Translations under genes and position numbers: made by a program
Shown here: positions 1,287-21,462 of the stretch, piece after piece
Layout of the letters: each line of letters begins with the position of its first letter
Numbering within the stretch: position 1 is the first letter of the stretch
Origin: an uncultured Pseudomonadota bacterium
GTDB taxonomy: Bacteria; Pseudomonadota; Alphaproteobacteria; RF32; CAG-239
Assembly (NCBI GenBank): GCA_949290295.1
Contig: CASERH010000001.1
Coordinates: forward strand, 67,969 to 131,968
Direction of reading: 5' to 3'
DNA: 64,000 nt
Notes under the pieces: model-generated
Databases searched by the model: none
What the model saw: only the letters and a program-made list of their open reading frames with translations
Told to the model about the DNA's origin: nothing

Positions 1287-1287
1287 A

Positions 1288-2020: not shown

Positions 2021-2480
2021 TGATTGGCTGGATTCTCCCTTTGACCCAGAGCAACGCTACGAGCATTTAGAAGATGTTGAACCGGAGTTTTGGAAGAAGA
2101 AAAAGCTGGAAGATATGTCACCAAGAGAGTGGGAGCTTTTATGCGACGGTTGTGGCAAATGCTGCCTAAATAAACTTGAAATTCGCGGCCGCATCAAGTT
2201 CACTCGCACTGTATGCCGATTTTTAGATTGCCAATCTTGCCTCTGCAAAATATATGAACACCGTTTTAAAAAAGTGCCGGATTGTCGCAATATAGACTTG
2301 GCCGCCGTGAGAGAAAAGCCTCGCTGGTTGCCAAAGACTTGCGCCTATTGGCTTTTAGACAACGGCCAAGATTTGCCCGATTGGCACCCCTTAAAAATGT
2401 CTTTACGAAACCGAGAAGTTGTATCAGAAACCGGAGTAAATGACTATGAAGATTACATTGTTGACTGGCCGGACCTCTGA
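2004..2480 (+). CDS. ycgN: UPF0260/YcgN-family cysteine-rich protein, copy 2 (tandem paralog)
   Basis: Same Cys/His pattern as copy 1 (REWELLCDGCGKCCLNKL...KTCAYWLL...LPDWHPL). Overlaps copy 1 by 17 nt. Confidence 0.65.
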   Translation: MQTMTDDWLDSPFDPEQRYEHLEDVEPEFWKKKKLEDMSPREWELLCDGCGKCCLNKLEIRGRIKFTRTVCRFLDCQSCLCKIYEHRFKKVPDCRNIDLAAVREKPRWLPKTCAYWLLDNGQDLPDWHPLKMSLRNREVVSETGVNDYEDYIVDWPDL

Positions 2481-3153
2481 TATTGCAGAAGCTTTAGGGA
2501 TGGAGATAAAGATTATAAAATCTCCCTTAGCCAAACGCCTAACCCTAAGGATTGACGATAAAAATCATCTCCCGGTACTAACCATTCCCAAGTATTGCAC
2601 ATCTCGCAAAGCTATCAACTTTGTGGAAGAGCATCGCGACTGGATTCGCAATATGCTGGCCCGTTTACCCACAGCCGAAAAATTTGGAAACGGAGAAAGC
2701 ATCTCCATAATGGGAGAAAAAGTTATCATCACCCACCACCGCGGCCAAAGAGGAATAGCTCTCAAAGATGGCTTTTTGGTTGTTGGCGGCGAACCGGAAT
2801 TTTTACATCGTCGTGTAAGCGATTTTTTAAAAAAACTTGCCGCCAAAGAGCTGTCAAAACTTTCAATTGCCAAAGCCAAACAACTAGGCAAAACCGTTCA
2901 TCATATAAGCATTAAAGACACCAAATCCCGCTGGGGCAGCTGCTCCAGCAAAAACAATATCAACTATAATTGGCGGATAATTTTGGCTCCCAAACATGTC
3001 ATTGATTATCTCGTTTGCCACGAGGTTTCTCACCTCTTGCACCAAGATCATTCTGCAAACTTTTGGAATTGCGTTGCCACCCTTTGTCCTGATTACCAAG
3101 ATGGACGCCGCTGGTTAAAAGTAAAAGGCAAAGAGCTTTACCGCTACATTTAA
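2440..3153 (+). CDS. YgjP-like (DUF45/M48-related) zinc-dependent hydrolase
   Basis: WGSCS...N..NYNWRIILAP followed by HEVSHLLHQDHS (HExxH). Domain order is typical of YgjP/SprT-like proteins. Confidence 0.6.
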   Translation: MTMKITLLTGRTSDIAEALGMEIKIIKSPLAKRLTLRIDDKNHLPVLTIPKYCTSRKAINFVEEHRDWIRNMLARLPTAEKFGNGESISIMGEKVIITHHRGQRGIALKDGFLVVGGEPEFLHRRVSDFLKKLAAKELSKLSIAKAKQLGKTVHHISIKDTKSRWGSCSSKNNINYNWRIILAPKHVIDYLVCHEVSHLLHQDHSANFWNCVATLCPDYQDGRRWLKVKGKELYRYI

Positions 3154-3226: not shown

Positions 3227-3955
3227 ATGGAAAACAAATCATATTCACAAACAGCAGCCTCCGCCTCTATTAGTGAGGGTCTGCGCCAATATATGATAAA
3301 AGTTTATAACTTTATGGCGGCAGGATTGTGCCTCACCGCTTTGAGTGCCTATATTATTGGCAACACCTCTTTACTGGGACTGTTCTTTAACGTTAATCAG
3401 CTCGGCCAAGTTACAGGTATGTCTGGATTCGGCTGGTTAATGTTTATTGCTCCGCTGGTAATGGTTTTTGCCTTTGGATGGGTGCTAAATAGAGGAACAT
3501 CTGCTCAGGTTCAAGGCTTGTTTTGGGCCTATGCGGCAGTTATGGGAGCATCTCTGACGCCGATTCTCTTGGCTTATACCGGTGCCAGTGTTGCCAGGGT
3601 TTTCTTAATCACAGCCGGCACCTTTGGCGCCATGAGCCTCTATGGCTACACCACCAAAAAAGATTTAAGCGGTATGGGCTCTTTTTTAATGATGGGCTTG
3701 TTTGGCATCATCATTGCCATGATTGTTAACATCTTCATGAAAAGCCCCGGTGTTGACTATGCTATTTCCATTTTAGCCGTTGGCATCTTCGTTGGCCTGA
3801 CTGCTTATGATACTCAAAGAATCCGCGATATGTATTATGAAGGAGATAGTAGCGAGATAGCCACCAAAAAAGCTATTTCCGGTGCTTTGTCACTGTATCT
3901 TGACTTCATTAACATGTTCATTTACCTGTTGCGTTTCTTTGGAGATCGCAGATAA
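3227..3955 (+). CDS. Bax-inhibitor-1/YccA family inner membrane protein
   Basis: Seven hydrophobic segments. The N-terminal YMIKVYNFMAAGL and C-terminal DFINMFIYLLRFFG are typical of the BI-1/YccA family. Confidence 0.7.
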   Translation: MENKSYSQTAASASISEGLRQYMIKVYNFMAAGLCLTALSAYIIGNTSLLGLFFNVNQLGQVTGMSGFGWLMFIAPLVMVFAFGWVLNRGTSAQVQGLFWAYAAVMGASLTPILLAYTGASVARVFLITAGTFGAMSLYGYTTKKDLSGMGSFLMMGLFGIIIAMIVNIFMKSPGVDYAISILAVGIFVGLTAYDTQRIRDMYYEGDSSEIATKKAISGALSLYLDFINMFIYLLRFFGDRR

Positions 3956-3973
3956 ACGAATTTGAAGAAAAAA

Positions 3974-4004
3974 GATCCCGCCGATTTGGCGGGATTTTTT
4001 TATT
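3974..4004. terminator. Bidirectional Rho-independent terminator
   Basis: GATCCCGCC-gattt-GGCGGGAT hairpin flanked by an A-run and a T-run. It sits between convergent genes and overlaps the stop of the minus-strand gene. Confidence 0.7.
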
Positions 4005-5079
4005 TCTGAAACATAACTAAAGAACTTCCTTCTTGTTCTTGAGATTGTTTTAGAGCCTCTATGGCTTGTTCAATCAATTTTTTTGCCGACCGCGCCGGAT
4101 TAGGAAAGACGCTGGCGCCAACACTAACAGTTAGGTCGTGAGTCGTAAAATTATCGCTCACGCCTTCTCTAAGCAAGGCCATAAGTTTTTTTATCTCCAC
4201 ATCCAAATCATACCCGCTCATCAAATCAGGCATCAATATCCAAAAATGATATTTCAGCCCTCTGGCCACGGTATAATTTTTTTTCAAACTCAAAACCAAA
4301 GTGTTGGCAAGTTTTTTGATAACAAATTCTTCCAAATGAAGTTTTCTGAAAGATTCAATATTGTCAACATTAACCCCAACAACGGCAATCAAATCTTTCG
4401 GCAAACGAGAATCCTTATAATTCTCATTGTTAACAGCCATTTGAACCCTGTCTTCAAACAAGAAGAAATTTGGCAAACCTGTCAAATCGTCATATAAATT
4501 ATTGAAAAACGGTTTACTGCTTTTGTTTTGGTGATTTCCCACTAAAATAAAAGAAAAATGCTTAGTATCAGGCAAATAGATGGCCTGGAATTCAACCGGA
4601 ATAACTTTCCCCTTGAGAGAGCGTAATCTAATTTTTTGCTTTTGAGCAGAGGTCAGCATCTCGCCGATACTTGAGGTCATAAGATTCCAATCTTGCTTAT
4701 CAACAAACGAAAGGAAGGGCTCGCCCAAAGAAGACTTCATATCTTTGATGTCCAACATTTGCATTGCCGTAAAGTTAAAATAAACGGCTTTATCATCGCT
4801 GACCATAACAATCGGCCGCTCAGAGCTATTCATAACTAAGTTAACGATATCGTTAAGATTGACATCCAAATCTTGCCAAAAATACTTTTCCTTAATTTTT
4901 TTCTTTTGTTGTTTTGGCAACTCTGTTTGAGGGGGCTGAGCATTAAAATTTTCAAGGTCATTAAGAACAATGCCATACTGATCTGCCTTTTTGAGCAAGG
5001 CCAAATCAGCCTTTGCGGCAGAAACAAACCCTGCATGCCCCTCAAGATTTTCAATATTTAAAGAACTATCTTCACTCAT
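4000..5079 (-). CDS. Signalling protein with a degenerate GGDEF (diguanylate-cyclase-like) domain
   Basis: YDDLTGLPNFFLFEDRV is the GGDEF domain N-terminal signature, but no intact GG(D/E)EF motif is present. The N-terminal half looks like a PAS/sensor domain. Confidence 0.5.
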   Translation of the reverse strand: MSEDSSLNIENLEGHAGFVSAAKADLALLKKADQYGIVLNDLENFNAQPPQTELPKQQKKKIKEKYFWQDLDVNLNDIVNLVMNSSERPIVMVSDDKAVYFNFTAMQMLDIKDMKSSLGEPFLSFVDKQDWNLMTSSIGEMLTSAQKQKIRLRSLKGKVIPVEFQAIYLPDTKHFSFILVGNHQNKSSKPFFNNLYDDLTGLPNFFLFEDRVQMAVNNENYKDSRLPKDLIAVVGVNVDNIESFRKLHLEEFVIKKLANTLVLSLKKNYTVARGLKYHFWILMPDLMSGYDLDVEIKKLMALLREGVSDNFTTHDLTVSVGASVFPNPARSAKKLIEQAIEALKQSQEQEGSSLVMFQK

Positions 5080-5206
5080 CTTATTTATCTGTTTTTTTGT
5101 AGTTTAGAATCTATTTATCAAAAACACAATGCCAAAATCTTTGTATTTTTTTAATAATATTAGAATATACTCCGTTCATCTATGCAAAAAAAGAAAGAAT
5201 TCAACC

Positions 5207-7279
5207 ATGGCGGAAGAAGAAAACACCAAAGAAAATTCAGAAGAGTCTCTTTCTGCGGCGGCAGAAGAAGATGCTGTTTTGGCACCAGCGGAAACTTTAG
5301 ATAAAGATACACAAGAAAAAGCTGTTTCTGACAACACATATTTGGTAAAAGAACGTTTTGAAATTGACTATAGTCATCCTTTGCCGGAATTAAACGCCAA
5401 CGGGGCCAAGGCCTACATGGTCAAAGATAAAATAAATCCACAGCGTGAACTTTTTGCCCTTCTGTGCGACAACAACTTTCCGCCCAGACTTTCCATGTTG
5501 CCCTATTTGAAATCAATAGAACACCCGAATTTGCTAAATCTGGTGGATTACAGTGTTGTAGACTATAAGCCGGAAAAGACAATGAACATGGCATTAATAT
5601 ACAGTCGTCCGACCGGCCCAAAGGTCTCCCAGGCAATCCCAAAAGAAAAACCAAGCTTTGAAAAATTTAAATCCTTGGTACTGTCGTTAGTTTCCGGCTG
5701 TGAAGCTCTGAAAAACTACAATCTAACTCACCGAGCCATTCGCATGGACAACATCTTTTTTAAAGATGAGAAGGGCTCTGAACTCGTGTTAGGGGATTGC
5801 GCAGCATCATTTCCTGCCCTATACCAGCCTAATGCCTATGAAACCCAGGAGAGCCTATTATGCATACCCCAAGGACGCGGGCAAGGAAGCAGCGGTGACG
5901 ATGTTTACTCTGCCGGAGTTGTTTTATTAGGGCTTGCTTTAGGCCACGAAATTGCTCCCAAATGTTCGTGTCCGGAGTTACAGCGTCTAAAACTAAAAAA
6001 AGGTTCTTTGGCAACCCTTTCTGATGGAGAAAAAATTCCCGGTCAAATTATGCCTCTTTTGAAAGGAATGTTAGAAGACAGTATTGAAAGTCGTTGGAAC
6101 AGCTCGCAAATTTACAATTATCTTGACGGAAAGAATCCAACCTTTTCCTCTGAGCCAGGAGATCGCTCCATGAGAGCCTTAAGCATTGGCGGAGAAAAAT
6201 ATTACACGGCCAAATCCGTAGCTTTGGCAATATTGGAAAATCCGGCAGACGGCCTAAGTGTTATTAAAAGCGGCAAACTTTTGGAGTGGATAAAGAACGG
6301 CCTTGAAAACGAAAAACTCCACAATAAAATAGAACGATTAATCAACGCAGAGAAAGAAGGAGAATCAAACAGATTGCTTTTGCCGCAAATCTGCATTTAC
6401 TTAGACTATAGTTTGCCGATCAAGTGTGATACCATGTATGTTTTTCCGAGTGGTCTTCCCAAAGCCATATTCCATAGCTTAAAAACAGGTAGATCTTTGG
6501 AGCCCTTCCACCAAATTTTATCTGGAGATTTAATCAAAATCTGGTACCAAGAGCAACCCTATTTACACGCTCCTGCAAACAGTAATGAATTTAGAGTTTA
6601 TCTAAGCCGCAATGATTATGGTTATGGCATCGACCGTATCATTTATGATTTTGACGATGATTTGCCCTGTACCAGTCCCCTAATTGGCAAAGAGTTTGTA
6701 AACACCCCATCAAAATTATTAAAAGCTCTGGATTCGAACTATTCAGAAAACAAAGAAGACAAGCCATACGACAAAAATATCATAGCCTATCTGCGCAGCA
6801 AGATGGGCAAAAAAATAGATGGCATATTAACCGATATCAACGCCAATCAAGATGCCCTACAAATATCGGCTGTCATGAGATTGTATGCCAATATTCAAAA
6901 CAAAACAGGTCCGGTTCAACTTCTAAACCTGACCAAATGGTTGGTAAAAACTGCCAAGCCGATTATAATGAATTATCATAATACGAAATACCGTAAATAT
7001 TTGGAACAAGAGACCATAAAAATTTCCAAAAGCGGCAAAATTATAGAGCTTTACGAAATTCTTGAAAACGAGGAGGCTCAAAAGAAGGACCGAACGGAAT
7101 ACGCTTCTGTTTTGAAAAAAGTGAACATTTTGGTAACCGAACGCAACCGTATTTTGCAAGGGAGCCCGAAACTAGATGAAGAATCCAGAGAGCTGGCTAT
7201 AAAATTTGGCTCGATTCTTTCAATTTTAACCATGTTGAGTTCATTTATTCTCAGCATTATTTATTGGGTGTTTAAATGA
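5207..7279 (+). CDS. Eukaryotic-like Ser/Thr protein-kinase-fold protein (likely pseudokinase) with a C-terminal TM anchor
   Basis: HRAIRMDNIFF aligns to the HRDLKPENILL catalytic loop, with the catalytic Asp replaced by Ala. GDC replaces DFG. DDVYSAGVVLLGL matches subdomain IX (DxWSxG). The C-terminal FGSILSILTMLSSFILSIIYWVF is hydrophobic. The ORF track starts at 5129, but that N-terminus translates an AT-rich promoter, and MAEEEN at 5207 is more plausible. Confidence 0.55.
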   Translation: MAEEENTKENSEESLSAAAEEDAVLAPAETLDKDTQEKAVSDNTYLVKERFEIDYSHPLPELNANGAKAYMVKDKINPQRELFALLCDNNFPPRLSMLPYLKSIEHPNLLNLVDYSVVDYKPEKTMNMALIYSRPTGPKVSQAIPKEKPSFEKFKSLVLSLVSGCEALKNYNLTHRAIRMDNIFFKDEKGSELVLGDCAASFPALYQPNAYETQESLLCIPQGRGQGSSGDDVYSAGVVLLGLALGHEIAPKCSCPELQRLKLKKGSLATLSDGEKIPGQIMPLLKGMLEDSIESRWNSSQIYNYLDGKNPTFSSEPGDRSMRALSIGGEKYYTAKSVALAILENPADGLSVIKSGKLLEWIKNGLENEKLHNKIERLINAEKEGESNRLLLPQICIYLDYSLPIKCDTMYVFPSGLPKAIFHSLKTGRSLEPFHQILSGDLIKIWYQEQPYLHAPANSNEFRVYLSRNDYGYGIDRIIYDFDDDLPCTSPLIGKEFVNTPSKLLKALDSNYSENKEDKPYDKNIIAYLRSKMGKKIDGILTDINANQDALQISAVMRLYANIQNKTGPVQLLNLTKWLVKTAKPIIMNYHNTKYRKYLEQETIKISKSGKIIELYEILENEEAQKKDRTEYASVLKKVNILVTERNRILQGSPKLDEESRELAIKFGSILSILTMLSSFILSIIYWVFK

Positions 7280-7755
7280 TAAAACCATTAAGAACGCGCC
7301 AACCGGCTAAAGCGAAAATAAAGTTCAATCTTTTGCAAAAGATTCTACTTCTTTTGGGATTGGTTATTTTGGTAATAACGGCCTTACCGGCAGTTGTAAT
7401 CTTAATCATCGGACTGCTGCCGACAATCACAATTATCTTGATAGATTCAAAAAATACCAGCAAACTGACAATGGTAGGTTGTTTTAATTTGGCCGGAGTT
7501 TTTGTTTGCCTGATGAATATTTTTAATCAATTTAACCTTAATCATGCCATTACAATTCTTGGCAATGTTTTCAATATAATCATCATGCTGGGAGCCGCGG
7601 CTTTAGGAATGGTTCTATATTATGAGTTGCCAAATCTTTTTCTGTTCATCTCCAAGGCATCAGCCCAGAGACGCCTTCGCAACATTGACAACAAGCTCGA
7701 AAAAATTGCCGATGAGTGGGGGCAAGAATGTATTGCTGAAGTAAATCAAAAATAA
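7276..7755 (+). CDS. Polytopic membrane protein, translationally coupled to the kinase-like gene
   Basis: ATGA start/stop overlap with the upstream gene. At least four TM helices. No family recognised. Confidence 0.4.
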   Translation: MIKPLRTRQPAKAKIKFNLLQKILLLLGLVILVITALPAVVILIIGLLPTITIILIDSKNTSKLTMVGCFNLAGVFVCLMNIFNQFNLNHAITILGNVFNIIIMLGAAALGMVLYYELPNLFLFISKASAQRRLRNIDNKLEKIADEWGQECIAEVNQK

Positions 7756-7758
7756 ATC

Positions 7759-7789
7759 CAAAGCCGCGTTTTAAAACACGGCTTTTTCA
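7759..7789 (+). terminator. Rho-independent terminator
   Basis: AAGCCGCG-ttttaaaa-CACGGCTT hairpin followed by TTTTT. Confidence 0.55.
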
Positions 7790-7790
7790 A

Positions 7791-8669
7791 TTAAGATTTC
7801 ATGCCTTCAATTGTTTTGGCAATTTTTTTAATTGAATTCAATTCTATTTGCCGCACACGCTCTTTAGAAATATTATAAAGTTTGCTCAAATCATCAAGTG
7901 TCACAGCTTTCTCGAATAATCTGCGCTTAAATAAGATATCTCTTTCGCGTTTATTTAGGCACACAAGAGCCTTATTAAAAAGTTCACGGCGGTATTTCAT
8001 CGTTTCGGCATAAGCCAAAACCTCTTCTTGATTGGGCTTCGTATCAGCAATAAAATCCATCCATTCGCTACCACTATCAGAAGAAGCATCTATTTGAGTA
8101 TTAAGAGAGCCATCATGAGATTTAAGACGCATATTCATATCCGTCACATCTTGCACGCTGACATCCAAAGATTCGGCAATGCCATTTAACACCTTTGGAG
8201 AAAGCTCTCTGTCATCGGTAACATTGAGCTTATTTTTTATTTTTCGTAAATTAAAAAACAACTTTTTCTGTGCCGCGGTCGTCCCTATTTTAACCAACGA
8301 CCACGAGTTTAAGATATATTTTTGGATAGAAGCTTTAATCCACCACAAGGCATAAGTTGAAAATCTAAACCCCTTATCCGGTTCAAATTTTTCAATAGCA
8401 TAAAGAAGTCCGATGTTTCCCTCAGAAATCATCTCTGCTGCAGATAGGCCATAACCTCTGTATTTGGCAACAACTTTTACCACCAAGCGCAAATGAGAGG
8501 TGACCAAAACTTTAGCTATTTCCGGATTTTTTGTTTTCTGATATTGAACAGCCAGGTTGTATTCTTCATCCTGAGCCAAGATAGGATATTGCCTGATTTT
8601 TTGCAAATATCTGACCATGTTAAACTCTGGAGAAAAGTCCGCTCCACCAAGATTTTGGACATCATCCAT
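7791..8669 (-). CDS. rpoH: RNA polymerase sigma-32 heat-shock factor RpoH
   Basis: Sigma-70 family regions 2 and 4. The RpoH box QKKLFFNLRK is present. Confidence 0.85.
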   Translation of the reverse strand: MDDVQNLGGADFSPEFNMVRYLQKIRQYPILAQDEEYNLAVQYQKTKNPEIAKVLVTSHLRLVVKVVAKYRGYGLSAAEMISEGNIGLLYAIEKFEPDKGFRFSTYALWWIKASIQKYILNSWSLVKIGTTAAQKKLFFNLRKIKNKLNVTDDRELSPKVLNGIAESLDVSVQDVTDMNMRLKSHDGSLNTQIDASSDSGSEWMDFIADTKPNQEEVLAYAETMKYRRELFNKALVCLNKRERDILFKRRLFEKAVTLDDLSKLYNISKERVRQIELNSIKKIAKTIEGMKS

Positions 8670-8821
8670 GTTCGTTTCACTCCTGTTTAAGCATTCAGTC
8701 GTTCAACGTACGAGTTCTGGTCTCAAAAAAATCGACGCTTATAGGGTTGCGCTAAATTAGCAAAAGCGCAACCTATCCTTTAGTATGAGAAAGGTTGAAA
8801 AATTCCATTTTGAGTTGCTGT

Positions 8822-9793
8822 TTAGATATTTTCTAAAACACCCATCAATTGTTTGAAATCTGTTGGAAAATAAGATTCAAAAAACATTTGTTTTTGAGTT
8901 TTTGGATGAATAAAGCCGAGGCTTTTGGCGTGCAGGGCTTGCCTTGGAAAATTATTAATAAAATCTCTTTTATCTGAAGGAATGGCCTTATTCGTAATTT
9001 TTTTTGCTTTAACATAGAGCTGGTCACCCACAAGATTACAACCGATTCTGCTCATATGCACTCTGATTTGGTGGGTTCGTCCGGTTTCAAGGTTACATTT
9101 AACAAGAGAAGCAACATTCTTGTAATTTTTAATGGTTTGATAGTGTGTCACGGCATGTTTGCCATTTTTTTGCACAACGGCCATTTTCTTGCGATCATAA
9201 GGACTACGACCTATATCGGCGTCAATTATACCATTAAGCGGGTTAGGCACCCCAAAAACAACGGCAAAATAGGTTCTTTCAATAGAGTGTTCGGCAAACT
9301 GAGCGCACAAATGCTGATGCGCGGCATCATTTTTTGCCACCACCAAAAGACCTGAAGTATCTTTATCTATCCGATGCACAATTCCCGGACGTTTCACCCC
9401 GCCGATACCGGAGAGATCTTTGCAATGGTAGAGCAAGGCATTAACCAAGGTTTTATCTGGAGCTCCTGGAGCCGGATGAACGGTCATTCCGGCAGGTTTA
9501 TTAACCACGATAATGTCTTCGTCTTCATAGATGATATCAAGCGGGATATTTTGAGGTTGCGGTTCGGCATCAACTGCAGGAGGAACAAGAATTTGGTAGA
9601 TGTCACCTTCCTTTACCTTAAAAGAGTTATCTCCAATGGTGTCTTCGTCACAAGTAACATTACCCAAGGCAATAAGACGCTGCACTTGGGAGCGAGAAAC
9701 ATCAGGAAAACAATCGCTTAAAAACTTATCGATTCTTTTTCCCTTATAATCTTTATTAACCATTGGTGTGGTATAAATAACCGCATCAGACAT
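8822..9793 (-). CDS. rluD: 23S rRNA pseudouridine synthase, RluD/RluA family
   Basis: S4 domain at the N-terminus. Catalytic motif HRIDKDTSGLLVVAKN. Adjacent to rpoH, as in many alphaproteobacteria. Confidence 0.8.
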   Translation of the reverse strand: MSDAVIYTTPMVNKDYKGKRIDKFLSDCFPDVSRSQVQRLIALGNVTCDEDTIGDNSFKVKEGDIYQILVPPAVDAEPQPQNIPLDIIYEDEDIIVVNKPAGMTVHPAPGAPDKTLVNALLYHCKDLSGIGGVKRPGIVHRIDKDTSGLLVVAKNDAAHQHLCAQFAEHSIERTYFAVVFGVPNPLNGIIDADIGRSPYDRKKMAVVQKNGKHAVTHYQTIKNYKNVASLVKCNLETGRTHQIRVHMSRIGCNLVGDQLYVKAKKITNKAIPSDKRDFINNFPRQALHAKSLGFIHPKTQKQMFFESYFPTDFKQLMGVLENI

Positions 9794-10156: not shown

Positions 10157-11005
10157 ATGGCTGAAACAGATTCTCAAGATGAATTTGACCGTCTTTTAGA
10201 TGACTTCATCTCTCAGCAACTGGCTGATGCGGAAGACAACCTCACAGACCTCGCTGAGCTGAAAGAAACAGGCAAACCAGCGCCTCAATATCCGGAAGAT
10301 GAAGCCGAAACTATTCAAAAGCTCTACCAAGAAGAGCGCCAGCTATACGACGCCTACCACAATTTTCGCAACGCTATAACAGCTGTTGCCAAAAATGCCA
10401 ACATGGAACCGCCGCATTTTGAATTTGGTGCCAGATATATCTACCCACGCTTTCGCCCTTCCAGAACCAAACAACTCAACCAAGATATCTTCAGTGGTTG
10501 GGAGCTCTTGGCCATGGCGCAACCGGTCAGACTGTCATCTCTGCCGGCCAACGCCTCGGATGAGCAAATTTTAAATTTTGCCGAAAAAACAACCGATGAG
10601 AACTTGCAATGCGCTCTAATTTCTTATGTCGAAATCTTAATAGAGCTGGATGGTTGCGAAATTGCCTACAATATGCGCAAAGCCAAAGCCGAAAAGCGCA
10701 AAATAGAAAAAGAGATTTTTGAGGAACACCAACGCCGCAAAGAGCGGATGAAAAAGTATATTGAAGCCATCGAGGCACAGCATTTTCCGATAGATGCGGA
10801 AAGATTGGTCAACAACTTTTTCAAAAGCGTACGCAAAGATCCCGAAGGCGCACAAAAGATATTAGAAACGAATCCGGCCACCTTTGCGCCCATCCAGGTA
10901 GAAAAGATTCCGCCACGCTTTTTTGGGATGATAAAGCCCAAACCGGAAGACGGAATCAGAGTAAATAAAGAAATCGGAAAATTTTTGAAGAATTTGAAGG
11001 TCTAA
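10157..11005 (+). CDS. Hypothetical acidic cytoplasmic protein of 282 aa
   Basis: 13-nt spacing after the previous gene. Acidic N-terminus (DEFDRLLDDF) and a K/E-rich coiled region. No motif recognised. Confidence 0.35.
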   Translation: MAETDSQDEFDRLLDDFISQQLADAEDNLTDLAELKETGKPAPQYPEDEAETIQKLYQEERQLYDAYHNFRNAITAVAKNANMEPPHFEFGARYIYPRFRPSRTKQLNQDIFSGWELLAMAQPVRLSSLPANASDEQILNFAEKTTDENLQCALISYVEILIELDGCEIAYNMRKAKAEKRKIEKEIFEEHQRRKERMKKYIEAIEAQHFPIDAERLVNNFFKSVRKDPEGAQKILETNPATFAPIQVEKIPPRFFGMIKPKPEDGIRVNKEIGKFLKNLKV

Positions 11006-11083: not shown

Positions 11084-12775
11084 ATGGCAAAAGAAACCTC
11101 CTCTCCACGCAAAGAAGCACAAGCAGCAGCCAACAGCGGTAGAAAAAGCGGAGAAGAAAACACAAGAACAACAAACAGAGCCCCAACGGAGGCAACCAGA
11201 CCTGTCACACCAACATCAGGGGCGGGAAGCACGCCTACCGGTAGTGGAGAAAGCGGCACAAGTAGCAGCCCCACCCCGCAGCAAAATGATGGAAATTCTG
11301 GGCAAAAACCCGTCACGGTTAATCAAGCAACTCCTCAACCCGATAAATCAACAGACCGAGAGTTTACCGCTGAAGATCTCTCCGATTATGTTGCCTCACT
11401 TGCCAAAAAAGACCCTAAAGAATTATCGGTTGAAGAATTAAATGTCCTCAAAGAAAACACCTCGGATCCTGAAGAAAGACAAAAATACGAGGATATGATA
11501 AACCAACGCAATCTTCCTGGAGACGGAAAGGCACCTGAAGCAGGAAAGATTGAAAAGACTGATGACCCTGATGATCCCAAAGAAGATGACGACAAATTTG
11601 ATATTCAACAAGGCGATTTCATTGAATTCTTAATGAAAGATGTAGTGTTGGCCGCAGCGGCTTGGGGAGGCAAGAAGGTTTCAGGCCAAGTTGGTCTTTG
11701 GACATACCGAGGTCTTTCTTGGGCATATCACAAAGTAGATGATAAACTCTATACTCCAGCTAAAAAAGAACTTGCGGAAGCCTGGGATAACCTAAAGAAA
11801 AACACCAAAGAGGCCTTCAGAACCGTAGAACAATACCAAGTAAAAGATACCTTAACTGGCGACAACAGCACCGTACAATTCACTCATGAAGTTTTAAAAG
11901 AGCACAACAAGGTTATTGACGATGCCTTAAAAAGTCCCAAAAGAATTGAAGCCTTTGGTCGTTTTGCCGCAGCCGTGGTCAATGGTAAGTTAAAGGAGGG
12001 AACTTACAATCAAAATGGCCATGCTGTTTGGTTTGATAAAGAAACCCGCACCACTATTCCGCTTGAAGGCAAAACAATGCAGGATCTCATTAAAATGGTG
12101 CAGGAAACATCTCAAGCCATAGACGCCTCAGACAGACCAGTCGGAGAAAAAACCGCCCTAAAAGACCTGGCAGCCAAAGACTTTTCGGTTATAGTCGGAA
12201 CCTACACCCTGCTTGAAGGCCAAAAAAACATCTTTATGTCCAACATGGCCACCGCCACACTTCTGCAAATGAAGGCGGAAAATAAAGATTATCAATACTC
12301 AAAAGAAGAGCTTGAGGCCATGAAAAATCGTGCCGCCATAACCTTTTTCACCGAGCTGAGAAAAATAAGAAACGGTCAAAGCCAGTTCAAAACGGTTGAG
12401 GAATTTTTGGAAGCCAGCGGCAAAGCTGTCCAAACAGCCTACAACAATGTTGAAAAAGGACGCTATGATGAAAAAGGCAAAATGCCGCCAGCTAATGCAG
12501 AGTTAGTCCTGCTCAACAACCTCAACACATTGCAACGCCAAGAAAATCCCCAGGACATGTTAGCAGAGGCCATGCTGTTTAGCGAGACAATGAGAAAGCT
12601 ACAAGAGCGCCACAATAACGTGATTGCCCAAGAGGAGGCCGCTCGCAATGCACGAACTGGTAGAGGTAGAGAAGACAGAAGAACAAACGGAGATAGAGGA
12701 AACAATGGCGGTAGAGAAACCGGTGGCGATAGAGGAACCGGCGGTGGCAGAAGAAACAGCGGAGGAAGAGATTAG
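11084..12775 (+). CDS. Hypothetical 563-aa protein with a disordered S/T/P/G-rich N-terminus and a C-terminal RGG/GGR repeat tail
   Basis: First 100 aa are low-complexity (TPTSGAGSTPTGSGESGTSSSPTP). C-terminus is RTGRGREDRRTNGDRGNNGGRETGGDRGTGGGRRNSGGRD. The middle is a globular helical domain. Confidence 0.4.
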   Translation: MAKETSSPRKEAQAAANSGRKSGEENTRTTNRAPTEATRPVTPTSGAGSTPTGSGESGTSSSPTPQQNDGNSGQKPVTVNQATPQPDKSTDREFTAEDLSDYVASLAKKDPKELSVEELNVLKENTSDPEERQKYEDMINQRNLPGDGKAPEAGKIEKTDDPDDPKEDDDKFDIQQGDFIEFLMKDVVLAAAAWGGKKVSGQVGLWTYRGLSWAYHKVDDKLYTPAKKELAEAWDNLKKNTKEAFRTVEQYQVKDTLTGDNSTVQFTHEVLKEHNKVIDDALKSPKRIEAFGRFAAAVVNGKLKEGTYNQNGHAVWFDKETRTTIPLEGKTMQDLIKMVQETSQAIDASDRPVGEKTALKDLAAKDFSVIVGTYTLLEGQKNIFMSNMATATLLQMKAENKDYQYSKEELEAMKNRAAITFFTELRKIRNGQSQFKTVEEFLEASGKAVQTAYNNVEKGRYDEKGKMPPANAELVLLNNLNTLQRQENPQDMLAEAMLFSETMRKLQERHNNVIAQEEAARNARTGRGREDRRTNGDRGNNGGRETGGDRGTGGGRRNSGGRD

Positions 12776-13263
12776 TGAAAAAAATCTACAAAATCTTTAG
12801 AACAAGCTTAATTGGAATACTCTGGACATACCTTTTCCTTATTGCCGCCAATTATACGATGTATCAGTTATGGAGTTTCAATTTCATGTCTGCCCGCAGT
12901 TGGCAAACAATTTCTCGTTTTTGGGAAAGCGGCGGAGTTATAAACACAACAGCAGACTACGTCTTTTTGCTAATGCTTTTTGCTCTGCCTTTTTTATGGA
13001 TTTGGGGCTGGATAAAAGCGCTAAAAATAGATTATTTGAGCATTTTTCTCTATCCAATTAATGCTTATAACCGCTACATCATCAACAAATATGGTCACGA
13101 TTCCTCAAGAATAGTTTTGAAGAATCTAAAATCCAGCCAAAAAATGATAGAAGAAATAAAAAGTCAGCTGGAATCCATAAAACCGGCAAAGACCAAAGAA
13201 GTTGGCAACATTCGTGCCGAGGTACAAAAACAACTAGAAAAATTAAATACCCCAAAACACTAA
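12775..13263 (+). CDS. Polytopic membrane protein, paralog A
   Basis: GTG start overlapping the previous stop (TAGTG). Its N-terminal 90 aa align to the N-terminus of the next gene (I..W..LFL...W.F....W....W.SG.VI....F.L....W..GW.AL). Confidence 0.45.
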   Translation: MKKIYKIFRTSLIGILWTYLFLIAANYTMYQLWSFNFMSARSWQTISRFWESGGVINTTADYVFLLMLFALPFLWIWGWIKALKIDYLSIFLYPINAYNRYIINKYGHDSSRIVLKNLKSSQKMIEEIKSQLESIKPAKTKEVGNIRAEVQKQLEKLNTPKH

Positions 13264-13322: not shown

Positions 13323-14585
13323 TTGAAACCGCTTTTAATTTTAATACGAATAGCCTTTGTAGGTATCTTCTGGAGCATTTTGTTTCTAGAAGGTATTCGT
13401 GTTATTATGCTGACCAACTGGCATTTTGATATTTTGCGCATAGATCACTGGCTGTATGCCTGGAATTTATGGCTTTCTGGCTGGGTCATTGATGACCCTA
13501 AAGAATGGGCCTTTATCCTGATAATCTTGACTTTTGTTCCTGTTTGGCTGACGGGCTGGACCGCCTTAAGCCTAATTCACTGGGGTAAAATTATAGCAAA
13601 CGTACTTGAGCTGCCAATCAAATTGTTCAATAAGTTATTTGAAAAACAAGTCAAAAAAATTGCCAATACAGCCAGTGTCAAGGTTGTAAAGAAAAAAAGG
13701 TCCTACAAAGAGATTCGCCCGCGCAGCATTCGTCCACCTCTGGAAGAAAGCGCCTACGCCCTGCCGGCAGACAAAAAGGCGGCTCTTTCCGGTATAGCTC
13801 CCAAGAGCATCCCCATTTCCAAGCCCGCCAATAACATCACCAAAGAGGTTGATGCGCCTGTTGAGTTTAGCCATTCTCTGTTTAAGTTCGATGACGACGA
13901 CAACAGCGGATTTGACTTTGATTTATTTGATGAAACTCCCAAAGAAGAGCCTGCAAAACAAGAGCCAACCCCAACAAAAGAATCCGCAAAACAAGAGAAC
14001 AAAGCTCCAAACACAAAAGCACAAAGGAATGACAATAAGGGCAAAGGTGGTCAAAAGAACATCTCCTCCCCCGCACCTCATGGCAGTACCAATTCAACCT
14101 TAGAGGTCCTGAAACAGAAAGGATATGAAGTCATCACGGGAGCCACCATAAAGAGCACGCTTATAGATTTTATAGGTGTTTCGGGCACTCAGATTTGCCT
14201 TTGCTTAAACGATAAAGAACCGGGAGATTGGTTGGCGGATGAAGAGCGTTTCAATGATGAAGAACCTCTGTGGTTTTCAGAAAGTTCGCACAGAATTTCT
14301 CCTGTCAGAAAAATAGATATTGCGCGTTTAATTTTAACGGATAAGCTAACCGAAGCCGAGATGTCTTTCAAGGTAGAAGCTTATGTTATTGAACAAATCG
14401 GCAATATAATCAACGCGGAGGATATGTTTGATATTTGGGATAATATGAACATTCATGTTACCAGAATTGACAGAGGAACCCCCAAAGAAATAAAGTTATT
14501 TAATAAAACACTGGAAGAAGCCGAAGGTAAAATTGATAAGGCTGATTTTGATAAAGTTAGAAAACTAATTCGCAGTATTGCATAA
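13323..14585 (+). CDS. Membrane protein, paralog B, with a low-complexity linker and a C-terminal cytoplasmic domain; candidate T4CP partner
   Basis: TTG start 13 nt after a GGAGAG RBS. TM N-domain homologous to paralog A. K/E/P-rich linker and D/F-rich acidic patch (FKFDDDDNSGFDFDLFDE). It sits immediately upstream of the T4CP. Confidence 0.45.
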   Translation: MKPLLILIRIAFVGIFWSILFLEGIRVIMLTNWHFDILRIDHWLYAWNLWLSGWVIDDPKEWAFILIILTFVPVWLTGWTALSLIHWGKIIANVLELPIKLFNKLFEKQVKKIANTASVKVVKKKRSYKEIRPRSIRPPLEESAYALPADKKAALSGIAPKSIPISKPANNITKEVDAPVEFSHSLFKFDDDDNSGFDFDLFDETPKEEPAKQEPTPTKESAKQENKAPNTKAQRNDNKGKGGQKNISSPAPHGSTNSTLEVLKQKGYEVITGATIKSTLIDFIGVSGTQICLCLNDKEPGDWLADEERFNDEEPLWFSESSHRISPVRKIDIARLILTDKLTEAEMSFKVEAYVIEQIGNIINAEDMFDIWDNMNIHVTRIDRGTPKEIKLFNKTLEEAEGKIDKADFDKVRKLIRSIA

Positions 14586-14598
14586 AAAAGAGGAATAA

Positions 14599-16866
14599 AT
14601 GGCAGTAGAGAAAAAAGGAGAAGAATGGGAAGAATATAACAGTGCCGTCCGCTGGATGGTAATAACGGTTATTATCTCCACTCTCATAACCATATTTTTA
14701 GCTTTGGTTTCAATGCCGTTAGGATACCTTATCGGCACGGGTATTTCAAAAGAAAGCTTAGGGGATGTTTCCCGCTTTTTTGACCTTGTATTCAATAAAC
14801 CTGGCTATCTTTATTCTCGCTATTGGAACTGGATAAAACAAGTTTTTAATTACCACGGTCCTTTTTCTGTAAGCCTGTGGATTCCTATTTTGCCCTTTAT
14901 CAGCCTCCCGGTTGGTTTAATTTTTGGGGTCATTACTAATCCATACAGATTCCAATCAAACATCCACGGCTCTGCCCGCTTGGCTACGGAAAAAGATATC
15001 AAAAAGATGGAACTGTTGGGATTCGATGGCTTTTGCCAAGTGGTTGGCAAATTCAACAATAAGCTTCTACTGTTGAAAGAAACGCTTTCCACGCTTTGTT
15101 GCGCACCTCCGGGAACCGGTAAAACAGCAGGAGTTGTTGTTCCGACAATTTTTCATTCACCGACCTTAAGCATCATCGTAAACGACCCCAAGCCGGAATT
15201 GTGTTTTCAAACATCCGGTGCCAGAGCCAAGGTTGGTCCTGTTTTTATCATCAACTGGGGTATGGAAGATAATCCTGCGGAAGGCATATACTACCCAAGT
15301 TGGAATCCTCTTTCTCCCGGTGCGGTACCGGCGCCTGGACCTTCCAGAGATATGTATGTAGATTCCATGTGCAAGGTTTTGGTAGAAGACCCCAAAGGAG
15401 GAGCAGACCCTCACTGGTCGACAACTGGTCGTGCGGCCCTAACCGGCTTTATCCACTTTATAGTTTCCAAGTGCGAAAAAGCAAGAGCTAATGACTACTT
15501 TATCGGCCGAGTTTATGAAGGCAAGTTAGACGAAGAAGATAAAAAGGTTCTGGAAGGCTACTATTTGGAAATGAATGATCCTGCAGCCGCCAGAGCTCTT
15601 CAAAATTTAAGAAACAATACCCTAAACATAGACAACTATTTACCGATTGGTACCTGGGCTTTGTTGCCGGAAAAATGGATTGGGCGAGAAGCCTGCATAG
15701 CCATGATTTTGGAGTGGATTACAGAGGCACAAATTAAACAATCTCAGGATATCAAACGCCGTATGGATGAAGGCGACCAAATGGCGGCCATGGCAGACCC
15801 CATGAGAGATTTGTTGGAGGAAGCTATTGAAGAGGCTCGTAAATTTGGCTACACGCAACGCTGTATCGTTGAGTTGAGCCAGTTAAGCTCTATGCCGGAT
15901 AAAGAAAGAGGCTCTGTTCTTTCAACCGCTTTTGCCGGCATCAACATCTTCAAAAACTCCGCCGTGGTAGCCCGTACAAGCTTCAGCGATTTGGCCTTCA
16001 AAGACTTGCGAGGACTAAAAGACCCCATTACCGGGGAATTTAAGCCTATTTCCGTTTATCTTTCGGTAAACCAAGTAGATGCCAGAGCTTTGAGTGTAAT
16101 TTCAGGAACATTCATTGACCTGATGTCCTCTTATCTGATAGCAAATCCACCCAAATTTAAGAATCCGACCGACGGTCAGATGGGTCCCTACTCCTGCCTA
16201 TTTGTACTAGACGAGTTTCCAACCATGCCCAAACTACGAGCCGTTATCGACGGGCCGGCAGTTGGACGTGGCCAAAAAGTATCATACTTGCTGATTGGCC
16301 AAGATTTGGGCCAAATATCCGGTAAATATGGTAAAGATGACCTCGAAACGGTTATCTCCACAACAGCCTGTAAGGTTATCTTGTCCCAAAACAACGAGCA
16401 AACAGCCCAACGTTTCTCAAAAATGATTGGCAACAAAACTGTCCAAACAACGTCTTACTCAAAGAACGAAGGTGGTTTTGGAAAGGGTGTAAACCCCTTC
16501 TCTAAAAACGTAAGCTACCAGTTACAAGGTGTTTCGGTTATATCTACAACACAACTATTAAGCTTGCCAATGCTAAAACAAGTTGTTTTGATGCAAAGTT
16601 ACATCGACAGGCCGATCATGGCAGATTCTCCTCGTTGGTACTTGGATAAAAAGATGAAGGCTCTGCGCAACCTTCCACCGGCACCAAATGTCCCAGACTG
16701 GATTGTTGCTCAAAGAGAAGACATTAATGATGATATGTTGGCCAAACTGGGTATAGACTATGATCCAAACGAAGATTTTGATGATTCCGAGTTTGCAGAA
16801 GATGAGGAGTATGATGAATCTTCTGAAGAAGCAGAAGACACCTCTACCGAGCAAGCCCCTCAATAG
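14599..16866 (+). CDS. Type IV secretion coupling protein (T4CP), VirD4/TraG/DotL family ATPase
   Basis: Two N-terminal TM helices. HGSARLATEKDIKKMELL matches the VirD4 HGSARWA box. Walker A is CCAPPGTGKTAGVVVPTI. FVLDEFPTMPKL is the Walker B box FLLDEF, and LLIGQDLGQI is the T4CP IGQ/Q motif. C-terminal acidic tail is DDSEFAEDEEYDESSEEAEDTSTEQ. Confidence 0.8.
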   Translation: MAVEKKGEEWEEYNSAVRWMVITVIISTLITIFLALVSMPLGYLIGTGISKESLGDVSRFFDLVFNKPGYLYSRYWNWIKQVFNYHGPFSVSLWIPILPFISLPVGLIFGVITNPYRFQSNIHGSARLATEKDIKKMELLGFDGFCQVVGKFNNKLLLLKETLSTLCCAPPGTGKTAGVVVPTIFHSPTLSIIVNDPKPELCFQTSGARAKVGPVFIINWGMEDNPAEGIYYPSWNPLSPGAVPAPGPSRDMYVDSMCKVLVEDPKGGADPHWSTTGRAALTGFIHFIVSKCEKARANDYFIGRVYEGKLDEEDKKVLEGYYLEMNDPAAARALQNLRNNTLNIDNYLPIGTWALLPEKWIGREACIAMILEWITEAQIKQSQDIKRRMDEGDQMAAMADPMRDLLEEAIEEARKFGYTQRCIVELSQLSSMPDKERGSVLSTAFAGINIFKNSAVVARTSFSDLAFKDLRGLKDPITGEFKPISVYLSVNQVDARALSVISGTFIDLMSSYLIANPPKFKNPTDGQMGPYSCLFVLDEFPTMPKLRAVIDGPAVGRGQKVSYLLIGQDLGQISGKYGKDDLETVISTTACKVILSQNNEQTAQRFSKMIGNKTVQTTSYSKNEGGFGKGVNPFSKNVSYQLQGVSVISTTQLLSLPMLKQVVLMQSYIDRPIMADSPRWYLDKKMKALRNLPPAPNVPDWIVAQREDINDDMLAKLGIDYDPNEDFDDSEFAEDEEYDESSEEAEDTSTEQAPQ

Positions 16867-16875
16867 GATTCAAAA

Positions 16876-17430
16876 ATGTGGGAGTGGTCCAAATCACGAA
16901 AAAAAAACATTCACGAAGGGTCTTTGAAAAACCGCTTTGAAGACCTTATCTCTCCACCCTCGGCATCACCTTCTGACATTGAAATACCATCTCCGGAGCA
17001 GATGAAGGAGCTTGTTCTGAGCGAAATAAAAAGAGAAAATCTCCTCAACATTGAACTAAAAAAATGCACTTATCATCCGCAAACATGGAATGAGATGACC
17101 AAAAGCTCAACACAATACCTAAGAATGAGAAAAACATTTCTTAAACTAATAGGATATTCTGCACAAGAAGATTGCAGAAAAATAGGATTTGATGAAGAAG
17201 ATATAGAGCTACTAAAGGAAAAAATATCTCCGGAAAACTATAACACCCACATAAAGATTCCGCTTGAATTTGGTGGAAAATTAGACATGGATAACCTTTG
17301 CCTGATAAAAACGCACCCTCTGCATGACCAAATTCACCACTTGATAGACATTCAAATCAGTTGTGGTTTTTTGCAAAAATATAAATTTATTTATATTCCT
17401 TGGTTTGAAGGAAAAATTTATCATGATTAA
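16876..17430 (+). CDS. HNH/colicin-E9-type DNase toxin domain protein
   Basis: The C-terminal THIKIPLEFGGKLDMDNLCLIKTHPLHDQIHH aligns with the colicin E9 DNase HNH motif [30 protein letters not shown]. It starts 10 nt after the T4CP stop. Confidence 0.65.
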   Translation: MWEWSKSRKKNIHEGSLKNRFEDLISPPSASPSDIEIPSPEQMKELVLSEIKRENLLNIELKKCTYHPQTWNEMTKSSTQYLRMRKTFLKLIGYSAQEDCRKIGFDEEDIELLKEKISPENYNTHIKIPLEFGGKLDMDNLCLIKTHPLHDQIHHLIDIQISCGFLQKYKFIYIPWFEGKIYHD

Positions 17431-17869
17431 TTCTTTACTATCTCAAGCTCAAAAAACAAAACACTTTATCAGTTTTTCACCTATGGAACCTGCTTCCATA
17501 GAGCAAACAAACCAAGAGCTCATAAGCTCAGGCACCCCGCCTCTCCCATCTGATTTTTGCGACTTTTTAAGCTTGTGCGACGGAATTTATTATGATGGAT
17601 TAGAACTTTTTGGCACCAAAGAACACCCTCGCCCAACCAAAGAATATATTTTTACAAATATAATAAAGGCCAACAAACCTTTTTCAGAATACAGTTTTTT
17701 CTCACAAAAACTCATCATCGGAGGCATGTCTGAAAACTTTATTATATACGATTCCAAAAACAAGCTGTTTGCAGTCATAGACAGAATAAACCTATGCTCC
17801 CAGATAGAATTTTCTTCTTTTGAGGAGCTGTTGTCTCACCTTTTGCGCCATTGCGAAATAGAGCTTTAA
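17423..17869 (+). CDS. SUKH (SMI1/KNR4) superfamily immunity protein
   Basis: [26 protein letters not shown] matches the SUKH-1 LP.dY..FL...NGG...l.lfG signature. The ATG at 17423 overlaps the toxin stop (ATGATTAA). The ORF-track start at 17363 is probably too far upstream. Confidence 0.6.
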
Positions 17870-18048
17870 TCAGAAGATGAATCCTCTTGATCTTCAAGTT
17901 GTCTCAAATCTTCCTCATCAATCTCCGTTGCCTCAAACCGATATTTCTCATTAAACCAATTACCAAGATCTATATCGGCACACCTTTTGCTGCAAAACGG
18001 ACGATATTTCATATCTGTCACTTCTTTTTTACAAATCGGGCATTTCAT
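17866..18048 (-). CDS. yacG: DNA gyrase inhibitor YacG (zinc finger)
   Basis: CPICKK...[12 protein letters not shown] pattern in a 60-aa protein with an acidic tail. Confidence 0.75.
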
Positions 18049-20394: not shown

Positions 20395-20817
20395 CTAAGA
20401 TGTGAGTTTGGCGAGTTCCACCTCCACCCTAAGTTCTATTTCGGCCATAATTTCTTGCAGTTTTGGGTCACTCGATTCTGCCTGATGTTCTTTAACCATT
20501 CTGGCTGTTTCGATTAATTTATCCTTAGACATATACCCAAGCAGTAAAGCATCTCTGATTTCCTCAAGTTTTTCCAGAAGAGAATAGCCTCTTTTAATGA
20601 GTTTTTTTCTGATTTCTCTTTCTTCTTCACTGCCCACCATTTGAGTGGCAAAGATGGCGTCTGTCACTGATATACCTGATGTTGGGCCAACTTGTTGGTT
20701 TTTTTTACTCATAGTTTCATTGAGATAAGCCGAAAAACTCTCTCCGCCGGATGCTTTTTTTATATTTTTTCCGGAACTGATATCGTTAGTTTTGTTTATA
20801 TCATTAACCTTAATCAA
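20395..20817 (-). CDS. Hypothetical 140-aa protein
   Basis: No confident family. The helical, charged C-terminus is faintly reminiscent of FlgM-like anti-sigma factors. Confidence 0.3.
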   Translation of the reverse strand: MIKVNDINKTNDISSGKNIKKASGGESFSAYLNETMSKKNQQVGPTSGISVTDAIFATQMVGSEEEREIRKKLIKRGYSLLEKLEEIRDALLLGYMSKDKLIETARMVKEHQAESSDPKLQEIMAEIELRVEVELAKLTS

Positions 20818-20829: not shown

Positions 20830-21462
20830 CTACTGAAAAGTCCAAGTAATTACATTTTTCTCATCATCGGCGCAACTTTCAGATGCTTTGACAGGAGAAA
20901 TGGGTAAAGCATCAGCATCTCCGAACTTAACACCATTAATGGGCAATTTAAACGTATTGTTATTTATTTTAAGCTGAAAGAGATCTGCGCCATCGATGCC
21001 ACTCCAATTTATCTGGCTTAAATTCATGCATGTGCGCAAAGAAAGCTTATTAAAGGTGACATCAAAATAATCATCGCCCAAAGAGGAAGTTTCTATGATA
21101 ACTTCTCCGTTAAGCCTATGAACAATTTCTCCATTAACCAGCATCTGAGAAGGAATAAGTTGCTCTTCCTTCAATTTTTGCGGCGTCATTTCAGAAGAAG
21201 AAAGTTCTGCGTAATTACCTTCCAAGCGATAACGCGTTGCAATATTTTTTTGAATTTCTCTAATTTCGTTAACTACCATATTTTGCCTAAACATCTCATA
21301 CATATTACCCACAAGAGATATAGCAGCAACGGTCAACACTATCACAACAGATATTGCGGCAATAGCTTCCATCATGGTTGTCCCTTTTTGATCAGATTTA
21401 AGCATACAATCTCCTACCAGTTCTTTATCACTAAGGATATCATTAAAAGTTTCAGTAAACAA
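20830..21462 (-). CDS. Prepilin-type N-terminal cleavage/methylation domain protein (type IVb-like pilin or pseudopilin)
   Basis: A 27-aa leader ending in KG, then TTMMEAIAAISVVIVLTVAAISLVG with Glu at +5 and a hydrophobic helix. This is the class III signal peptide architecture with a long leader. Confidence 0.5.
   Translation of the reverse strand: MFTETFNDILSDKELVGDCMLKSDQKGTTMMEAIAAISVVIVLTVAAISLVGNMYEMFRQNMVVNEIREIQKNIATRYRLEGNYAELSSSEMTPQKLKEEQLIPSQMLVNGEIVHRLNGEVIIETSSLGDDYFDVTFNKLSLRTCMNLSQINWSGIDGADLFQLKINNNTFKLPINGVKFGDADALPISPVKASESCADDEKNVITWTFQ

Follow-up and report, generated by a model that had tools for sequence, protein, structure and literature searches.

The stretch of DNA analysed here, 64,000 nucleotides (nt) of contig CASERH010000001.1 from an uncultured alphaproteobacterium (assembly GCA_949290295.1, positions 67,969 to 131,968; hereafter the window), contains an operon in which two small open reading frames (ORFs) follow the gene for a VirD4-type type IV coupling protein (T4CP). 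ORF A encodes a 184-amino-acid (aa) protein and begins 9 nt past the TAG stop of the T4CP gene; ORF B encodes a 148-aa protein and overlaps the end of ORF A by 8 nt (ATGATTAA). An earlier reading of the letters without database searches (the sequence-only reading) had proposed that ORF A, directly downstream of a T4CP, encodes a colicin-E9-like HNH DNase and that ORF B encodes a SUKH immunity protein coupled to it by the overlap. The position of ORF A and the coupled, SUKH-type partner were confirmed by our analysis, which identifies the two ORFs with high confidence as a toxin and its immunity protein. The pair belongs to a VirD4-containing module of gut and rumen Alphaproteobacteria, and the toxin may be exported as a VirD4-dependent effector.

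We characterized the 184-aa protein by family scans, profile comparisons and structure prediction. Direct scans matched it to no Pfam (E ≤ 1), NCBIfam or PADLOC family. When 37 orthologs were scanned against Pfam, no HNH or Colicin-DNase model was matched except for a single Tox-HNH-HHH match (E 0.3), and the other matches were noise. Single-sequence and narrow-profile searches of the PDB returned only pyocin AP41, below significance (E 0.46 and 0.068, respectively). An alignment of 37 toxin sequences with 41–92% identity (A1) has the invariant pattern PEN-N-H-K-P..FGG..N..H...H, and comparison of A1 with E. coli K-12 YhhZ by hhalign aligned toxin residues 56–182 to YhhZ 257–381 (96.9% probability, E 1.5e-10; 29% identity over 122 columns of the nuclease domain). 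YhhZ defines group 32 in the His-Me finger classification (PMC5714182). An exhaustive hidden Markov model search collected 472 relatives of the toxin domain (E<1e-3), many of which have the domain at the C-terminus of a longer protein. The N-terminal parts of the long relatives that we sampled were MuF_C, Mu portal, PT-TG, PT-HINT, RHS or PAAR-like, plasmid-borne relatives are annotated as LXG toxins of type VII secretion systems, and distant relatives match PF01844 near threshold (17–22 bits against a cut-off of 21.4). The broader alignment (A5) has the consensus G..P.G.NVHHK.P...GG.N.F.NL.LI...P.H..IH. Its profile matched the solved HNH domains of Cas8f-HNH (3.6e-6), a group II intron maturase (4.3e-5) and the pyocin AP41 DNase (9.4e-4); significance against PDB structures was reached only with this broad family profile.

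The AlphaFold2 model of the toxin is folded over residues 40–184, with a per-residue confidence (pLDDT) above 90. It contains the ββα-metal topology, β(122–126)-β(141–145)-α(149–162), in which H125, N140, H150 and H154 are positioned as expected. P119, E120, N121, N123, H125, K127, P129, N140, H150 and H154 are invariant in all 57 species in which we found the toxin, down to 30% overall identity. Judged by these comparisons, the resemblance to HNH domains exceeds chance, and the domain is assigned to the HNH/His-Me finger nucleases of the YhhZ type; the predicted nuclease is very probably active. Residues 124–155, which the sequence-only reading had quoted as the HNH motif at the end of the protein, do read THIKIPLEFGGKLDMDNLCLIKTHPLHDQIHH, but 29 residues follow them.

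The colicin-E9-like assignment held at the level of the HNH superfamily, to which the YhhZ and A5 comparisons point, but not at that of the Colicin-DNase family (PF12639). We rejected membership in the latter, to which only the weak or borderline links to pyocin AP41 lead, because no model matched, the HH doublet reads T/V/I-H and the immunity protein is of a different class. Colicins E9 and E7 and pyocins S2 and AP41 combine an HH doublet with four-helix Im immunity proteins, whereas the window has T-H and a SUKH/YrhA partner; unlike these bacteriocins, the toxin has no receptor-binding or translocation domains.

The 148-aa protein passed the NCBIfam model NF038335 (YrhA family) with 70.7 bits against a cut-off of 55, over residues 17–144 of 148. 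With hhalign, a 41-sequence profile of the partner could be aligned to YrhA of E. coli, over its intact part, with a probability of 96.0% (E 4.1e-9). The match to Pfam SMI1_KNR4 (PF09346, SUKH-1) remained below threshold (16.3 bits against a cut-off of 25.4, E 0.015). A single-sequence search of the PDB with this protein gave nothing significant, and the sole PDB match of the partner profile was Lin2918 (2icg; E 0.047), which we take to be a SUKH-1 structure. The immunity gene adjoins the toxin gene in 56 of the 57 species, and in the one exception the locus breaks off within the toxin gene; the 8-nt overlap recurs in 36 of the 56 orthologous pairs. We thus assign the 148-aa partner, by family membership, to the YrhA family of SUKH-type immunity proteins. 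The HMMER search against Pfam that the sequence-only reading had proposed as a check therefore gave a mixed outcome, with no direct match for the toxin and a sub-threshold one for the partner, and both identities were recovered by the profile comparisons and NCBIfam.

Since both proteins are homologous to YhhZ and YrhA, the pair as a whole is homologous to the YhhZ/YrhA pair, and the toxin gene comes first in both. In E. coli, the start of yrhA overlaps the end of yhhZ by 4 nt, as against 8 nt in the window. YhhZ, annotated as a 'putative endonuclease', has an N-terminal Hcp domain (PF05638) for delivery by a type VI secretion system (T6SS), whereas the window toxin has a short tag and a linker and follows virD4. 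The two nuclease domains also differ in a complementary manner: YhhZ keeps the HH doublet and lacks the final His (the equivalent of H154), and the window toxin shows the opposite. Hcp-fused HNH toxins are known as T6SS-delivered DNases, and delivery by a T6SS has been demonstrated for an Hcp-ET1 'HNH-DNase' (review PMC6730261).

We surveyed the distribution of the toxin by scanning one genome per species. The 57 species are represented by gut, rumen or caecal metagenome-assembled genomes (MAGs) labelled 'Alphaproteobacteria', such as CAG:495 and Ca. Scatocola, and one ortholog cluster was recorded on 644 contigs. The T4CP gene lies directly upstream of the toxin gene in 49 of the 57 species, and two further loci are too short to tell. 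The neighbourhood is colinear with the window even where the toxin is only 51% identical, in the order rpoH, rluD, DUF6476, p282, p563, p162, p420, T4CP, toxin, immunity, yacG, rng and maf. In a distant clade (L051–L064) the module is cut to p420, T4CP, toxin and immunity, with other housekeeping genes around it, and two further lineages with toxins of 418 and 433 aa likewise have the T4CP, then the toxin, then SUKH. Median identity to the window is 82% for the T4CP, 46% for the toxin and 35.5% for the immunity protein, and toxin and immunity divergence are correlated (r=0.91). The sequence-only reading had seen the classic polymorphic toxin-immunity arrangement here. The comparison across 57 species contradicts this: the operon is conserved in gut and rumen Alphaproteobacteria, and the locus is a single-copy ortholog that has been inherited vertically. 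Its divergence pattern is that of conserved machinery combined with an antagonistic pair that co-evolves quickly, not that of a polymorphic locus that swaps cassettes. In L024 (JAISFX010000123.1), the toxin-immunity pair lies on a 3-kb contig that is binned in a 'Lactobacillus sp.' MAG, probably in error, because all other occurrences are alphaproteobacterial. A more distant standalone homolog of the toxin, P0087, has neither a T4CP nor a recognisable SUKH gene beside it, and its housekeeping surroundings are unrelated; the VirD4 linkage thus appears to be specific to this alphaproteobacterial lineage.

The assignment of the T4CP is solid by family criteria, as the protein matches TraG-D_C and TrwB_AAD_bind in addition to PF02534. 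Walker A (PPGTGKT) is present in all 45 orthologs compared, and Walker B (LDEF) is intact. Its nearest plasmid relatives (~35% identity, E ~1e-102) are virD4 genes of alphaproteobacterial megaplasmids, where they stand at the end of canonical virB4-B8-B9-B10-B11 clusters. The T4CP and toxin genes of the window share a reading frame and are separated by TAG and three codons (16864–16878). A read-through fusion of the two was considered and rejected, as the spacers of orthologs are mostly not multiples of three and the frame relation is not conserved.

Table 1 Features of the toxin-immunity module and its surroundings in the window
Feature	Positions	Strand	Remarks
Toxin ORF (ORF A)	16876–17430	+	184 aa, ATG start; tag, disordered linker and predicted YhhZ-type HNH domain
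MWEWS N-terminal tag of the toxin	16876–16890	+	Family pattern M[WFL][DE]W[STA]
Disordered, length-variable linker of the toxin (residues 6–38)	16891–16989	+	From pLDDT and gap-rich A1 columns
Predicted ββα-metal core of the toxin, PENYNTH(125)IKIP..FGG..N(140)..H(150)...H(154)	17230–17361	+	From model, conservation and A5
Immunity ORF (ORF B), YrhA family, SUKH-type	17423–17869	+	148 aa, ATG at 17423
Overlap of toxin stop and immunity start	17423–17430	+	8 nt, ATGATTAA; read from the sequence
VirD4-type T4CP with acidic C-terminal tail	14599–16866	+	755 aa; PF02534, 1.9e-55
p420, membrane protein	13323–14585	+	420 aa; acidic disordered linker and C-terminal PD-(D/E)xK-like domain
p282, clade-A operon accessory gene	10157–11005	+	Conserved order
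p563, clade-A operon accessory gene	11084–12775	+	Conserved order
p162, clade-A operon accessory gene	12775–13263	+	Apparent paralog of the N-terminal transmembrane domain of p420
yacG	17866–18048	-	Convergent; shares 4 nt (17866–17869) with the end of the immunity gene
Protein-kinase-like gene	5129–7279	+	716 aa; weak Pkinase match; PADLOC MkoA-like, 1.4e-11
Four-transmembrane protein	7276–7755	+	159 aa; overlapped by the kinase-like gene
Type IVb pilin-like gene	20830–21462, 20395–20817	-	Next to fliX, beyond the dksA-maf-rng block; call rests on weak PilS/bundlin matches of orthologs

We next consider the ends of the toxin, where a signal for export might lie. The sequence-only reading had allotted roughly 100 aa to an N-terminal region; our estimate is about 40–55 aa, given that AlphaFold2 predicts residues 1–38 to be disordered (pLDDT below 50 at 1–17 and 24–33) and that the alignment with YhhZ starts at residue 56. 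The linker columns are gap-rich and variable in A1. By contrast, the first five residues, MWEWS, are invariant in A1, vary across species only within M[WFL][DE]W[STA], and are retained despite linker lengths of ~30 to ~250 aa, the long linkers being Q/P-rich (L055, L070 and L071). No other ORF in about 1.1 Mb of sequence searched carries the MW[DE]W tag. In the Pfam scan the toxin showed no recognised trafficking domain and no Hcp; only 55 residues precede the nuclease domain. At its other end, the protein stops 2 residues past the nuclease fold, and a XVIPCD of ~120 aa therefore cannot be present.

The tag is absent from a 12-species clade within L051–L064, whose toxins instead bear a conserved C-terminal extension of ~40 aa (...GSGGKGKHDRSVFAGYSESAF...MPGR); L055, L062 and L070 have both the tag and the extension. 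Many distant standalone homologs of the toxin end in Arg-rich sequences (...GR or ...RR). The tag co-occurs with an acidic tail of VirD4 (LGIDYDPNEDFDDSEF, net charge -10 to -20 over 35 residues) and with p282 and p162, while the tag-less clade has a short VirD4 tail (net charge -4 to -7) and no p282 or p162. L062 is an exception, with a tag and a T4CP that ends without an acidic tail. This co-occurrence fits recognition of the tag by the coupling complex and is weak evidence for it.

Among the remaining operon genes, p420 lies directly upstream of the T4CP gene wherever sequence is available. Its C-terminal domain shows no clear (D/E)xK motif, and its most conserved segment is a low-confidence loop. 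A wide homolog search with p420 found close orthologs only, and PDB sequence searches with p420 and the T4CP returned nothing significant. p162 and p420 cross-match in the N-terminal transmembrane domain, so p162 looks like a paralog of p420 minus the C-terminal domain; a p162-like gene in L055 encodes 345 aa and resembles p420. The order p282, p563 and p162 is conserved in tag-bearing species and the three genes are absent from the tag-less clade; none of the three proteins matched a family. p563, a soluble protein that is rich in S/T/P/G at its N-terminus and has an RGG-rich tail at its C-terminus, can be recognised in the closest species only, and a non-homologous gene occupies its slot in others. 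In L013 (~3456–6461), the p282-p563-p162 block is tandemly duplicated upstream of p420. L034 is the only locus with a 3-kb spacer between T4CP and toxin; two cysteine-rich proteins of 504 and 273 aa with apparent N-terminal signal sequences are encoded there (7436–9793, + strand). PADLOC gave no matches for p282, p162, p420 or the T4CP and two weak ones for p563 (E 8.4e-4 and 0.016), which we treated as noise, and a known defence system was rejected. Family scans recognised no relaxase in the operon. Promoter and terminator scans of the operon gave counts within ~2 standard deviations of the shuffled expectation and were uninformative.

On the 3′ side of the module, yacG, rng, maf, dksA and fliX lie on the opposite strand, and the 5′ flank contains rluD and rpoH. 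With housekeeping genes on both sides, the locus is thus chromosomal and in housekeeping surroundings. The kinase-like gene and the four-transmembrane gene (Table 1) are kept as a pair upstream of rpoH in many species.

Linkage to the coupling ATPase is kept in nearly all species, and the toxin is therefore probably a secreted weapon. We propose that it is an exported, VirD4-dependent DNase effector and, judging from genes and models, assign this statement as a whole a probability of roughly 0.5. In the mechanism that we infer, the toxin would be a metal-dependent HNH DNase in which H125 acts as the general base, the ββ hairpin is held by N140 and the metal is bound by H150 and H154. Its YrhA/SUKH-type partner, translated together with it, would bind the toxin in the cytoplasm of the producer and neutralise it; the adjacency of the two genes, their correlated divergence and the overlap of stop and start lend this role indirect support. 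The toxin would be a client of the adjacent VirD4, to which the MW[DE]W[ST] tag and the flexible linker could dock it through the acidic VirD4 tail, p282/p162 or both; in one clade, the C-terminal extension may replace the tag in VirD4 recruitment. Export would proceed through a VirB-type channel encoded elsewhere in the genome, and the toxin would then degrade DNA in a neighbouring cell.

Several observations weigh against this proposal. Homologs of VirB4, B8, B9, B10 and B11 were found neither in the 64-kb window nor within ±10 kb of the locus in 56 of the 57 species, so the export channel is assumed, not seen. L055 (UBA3864) has two tandem VirB6/TrbL-like genes abutting the module (3–3126, - strand) and a VirB8-like gene (PF04335, 1.7e-08; 14963–15718, - strand) ~4 kb downstream of it, the only T4SS (type IV secretion system) channel components found close to the module in any lineage. 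The pattern suggests a VirB-type system that may be scattered in the genome. Six species have a tagged toxin and an immunity gene with no T4CP within 10 kb, and their pairs are surrounded by housekeeping genes (lepA, an ABC-F gene, dacA, mipZ and pgm). In the toxin clade, T, V or I (T124-H125 in the window) stands in place of the first His of the doublet, a residue that is a metal ligand in colicin DNases and is kept in most of the wider family (A5). The co-occurrence of tag, acidic tail and p282 amounts to two or three clade-level events; it is therefore phylogenetically confounded and weak. Known T4SS signals are C-terminal, either XVIPCDs or charged tails, and to our knowledge an N-terminal T4SS tag is without precedent. 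Finally, the neighbouring PD-(D/E)xK-like p420 could point to DNA processing. We consider it doubtful that the tag, the acidic VirD4 tail and p282/p162/p420 constitute a new, N-terminal mode of substrate recognition by a T4CP, serving a contact-dependent DNase weapon of a scattered VirB-type T4SS throughout the lineage of human-gut and rumen Alphaproteobacteria.

The pair might alternatively work inside the cell, as an addiction or abortive toxin-immunity module in which an unstable or titratable SUKH protein restrains the nuclease and the VirD4 linkage is historical, left behind perhaps by an integrated conjugative element. The six species that keep the pair without an adjacent T4CP and the failure to find channel genes nearby agree with such a role, and the overlap and the toxin-first order would also suit coupling of the toxin-antitoxin type. 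However, elsewhere the domain family is found on secreted scaffolds (Hcp, RHS, PAAR, MuF and LXG), and a cytoplasmic toxin-antitoxin module would have no evident use for a conserved tag on a variable, disordered linker. Strong purifying selection on the T4CP and its intact Walker motifs show that it is not a decaying remnant. In addition, no PADLOC defence model matches the operon proteins. We regard an intracellular module as unlikely.

A variant of the effector proposal keeps VirD4/T4SS delivery and aims the toxin at eukaryotes, namely gut protists, fungi or host epithelium, with the SUKH protein preventing self-intoxication. There is a parallel in LtdD, a T4SS-delivered HNH effector that is selectively antifungal (PMC13600162). 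The effector in question here is conserved throughout the lineage and not strain-variable, as might suit a eukaryotic target. The large, tandem VirB6-like paralogs of L055 point the same way, as such paralogs recall the host-directed T4SSs of the Rickettsiales type. Nevertheless, HNH toxins linked to SUKH proteins are typically interbacterial weapons and no feature of the locus identifies a eukaryotic target, which leaves this variant distinctly unlikely.

The presence of two nuclease-fold proteins flanking the T4CP in every lineage raises the further possibility that the 184-aa protein is a DNA-processing enzyme of VirD4-driven DNA transfer or release, possibly together with p420, and that the SUKH protein is its regulator. 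The operon has no recognisable relaxase, and the RGG-rich tail of p563 suggests nucleic-acid binding. These points are offset by the homology of the pair to an effector-immunity pair, YhhZ/YrhA, and by its fast evolution, like that of antagonistic pairs, next to conserved machinery. Moreover, p420 shows no clear (D/E)xK motif and may lack catalytic competence, and we know of no HNH relaxase surrogate; both points count against this explanation. We judge it improbable. That the HNH fold is catalytically dead and serves the coupling complex as a structural subunit or adaptor, as the lost first His of the doublet, the small size and the tight T4CP coupling might suggest, is highly improbable given the invariance of H125, N140, H150, H154 and PEN-N in 57 species down to 30% identity and the dedicated immunity gene kept everywhere.

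Most descriptions of bacteria being killed by the T4SSs of other bacteria concern Xanthomonadales, whose effectors (X-Tfe) were found through their C-terminal XVIPCD. The VirD4-dependent effector proposed here resembles TfdA, a GHH nuclease, and LtdD, an HNH/EndoVII protein, in that these are HNH-superfamily DNases whose delivery requires VirD4. The toxicity of TfdA was assayed together with the adjacent gene 20840. X-Tfe proteins are large (899 aa in TfdA), with the nuclease N-terminal and the XVIPCD C-terminal, whereas the window toxin has 184 aa and a C-terminal nuclease of a different HNH family, with SUKH immunity. They come from Gammaproteobacteria with a contiguous virB cluster, whereas the window toxin is alphaproteobacterial and follows virD4 directly, with no adjacent virB genes. 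Polymorphic toxins of the RHS, PAAR, PT-HINT, MuF and LXG types have the same toxin domain at their C-termini and, as in the window, the immunity gene directly downstream. Our locus differs from them in being single-copy and in lacking a recognised trafficking domain, a cassette array and orphan immunity genes.

HNH toxins with SUKH immunity and T4SS-delivered HNH-superfamily DNases were already known. What is new is a toxin domain of the YhhZ type without a known trafficking domain and with a minimal N-terminal tag; its place directly after virD4, as part of a module that is passed on vertically and also contains an uncharacterised membrane protein with a PD-(D/E)xK-like domain; and the conservation of this arrangement across an uncultured lineage of gut Alphaproteobacteria without an adjacent virB cluster. 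If export proves false, the locus would amount to a toxin-immunity pair of the ordinary HNH/SUKH kind whose neighbourhood is unusual and conserved. Our results suggest that common uncultured gut Alphaproteobacteria carry a VirD4-coupled DNase that is invisible to XVIPCD-based screens. If recognition of the tag is true, the rules for T4SS substrates would be widened and the tag would provide a handle for finding further effectors in these genomes. An exported DNase of this kind would also add a mechanism of antagonism to models of gut community ecology.

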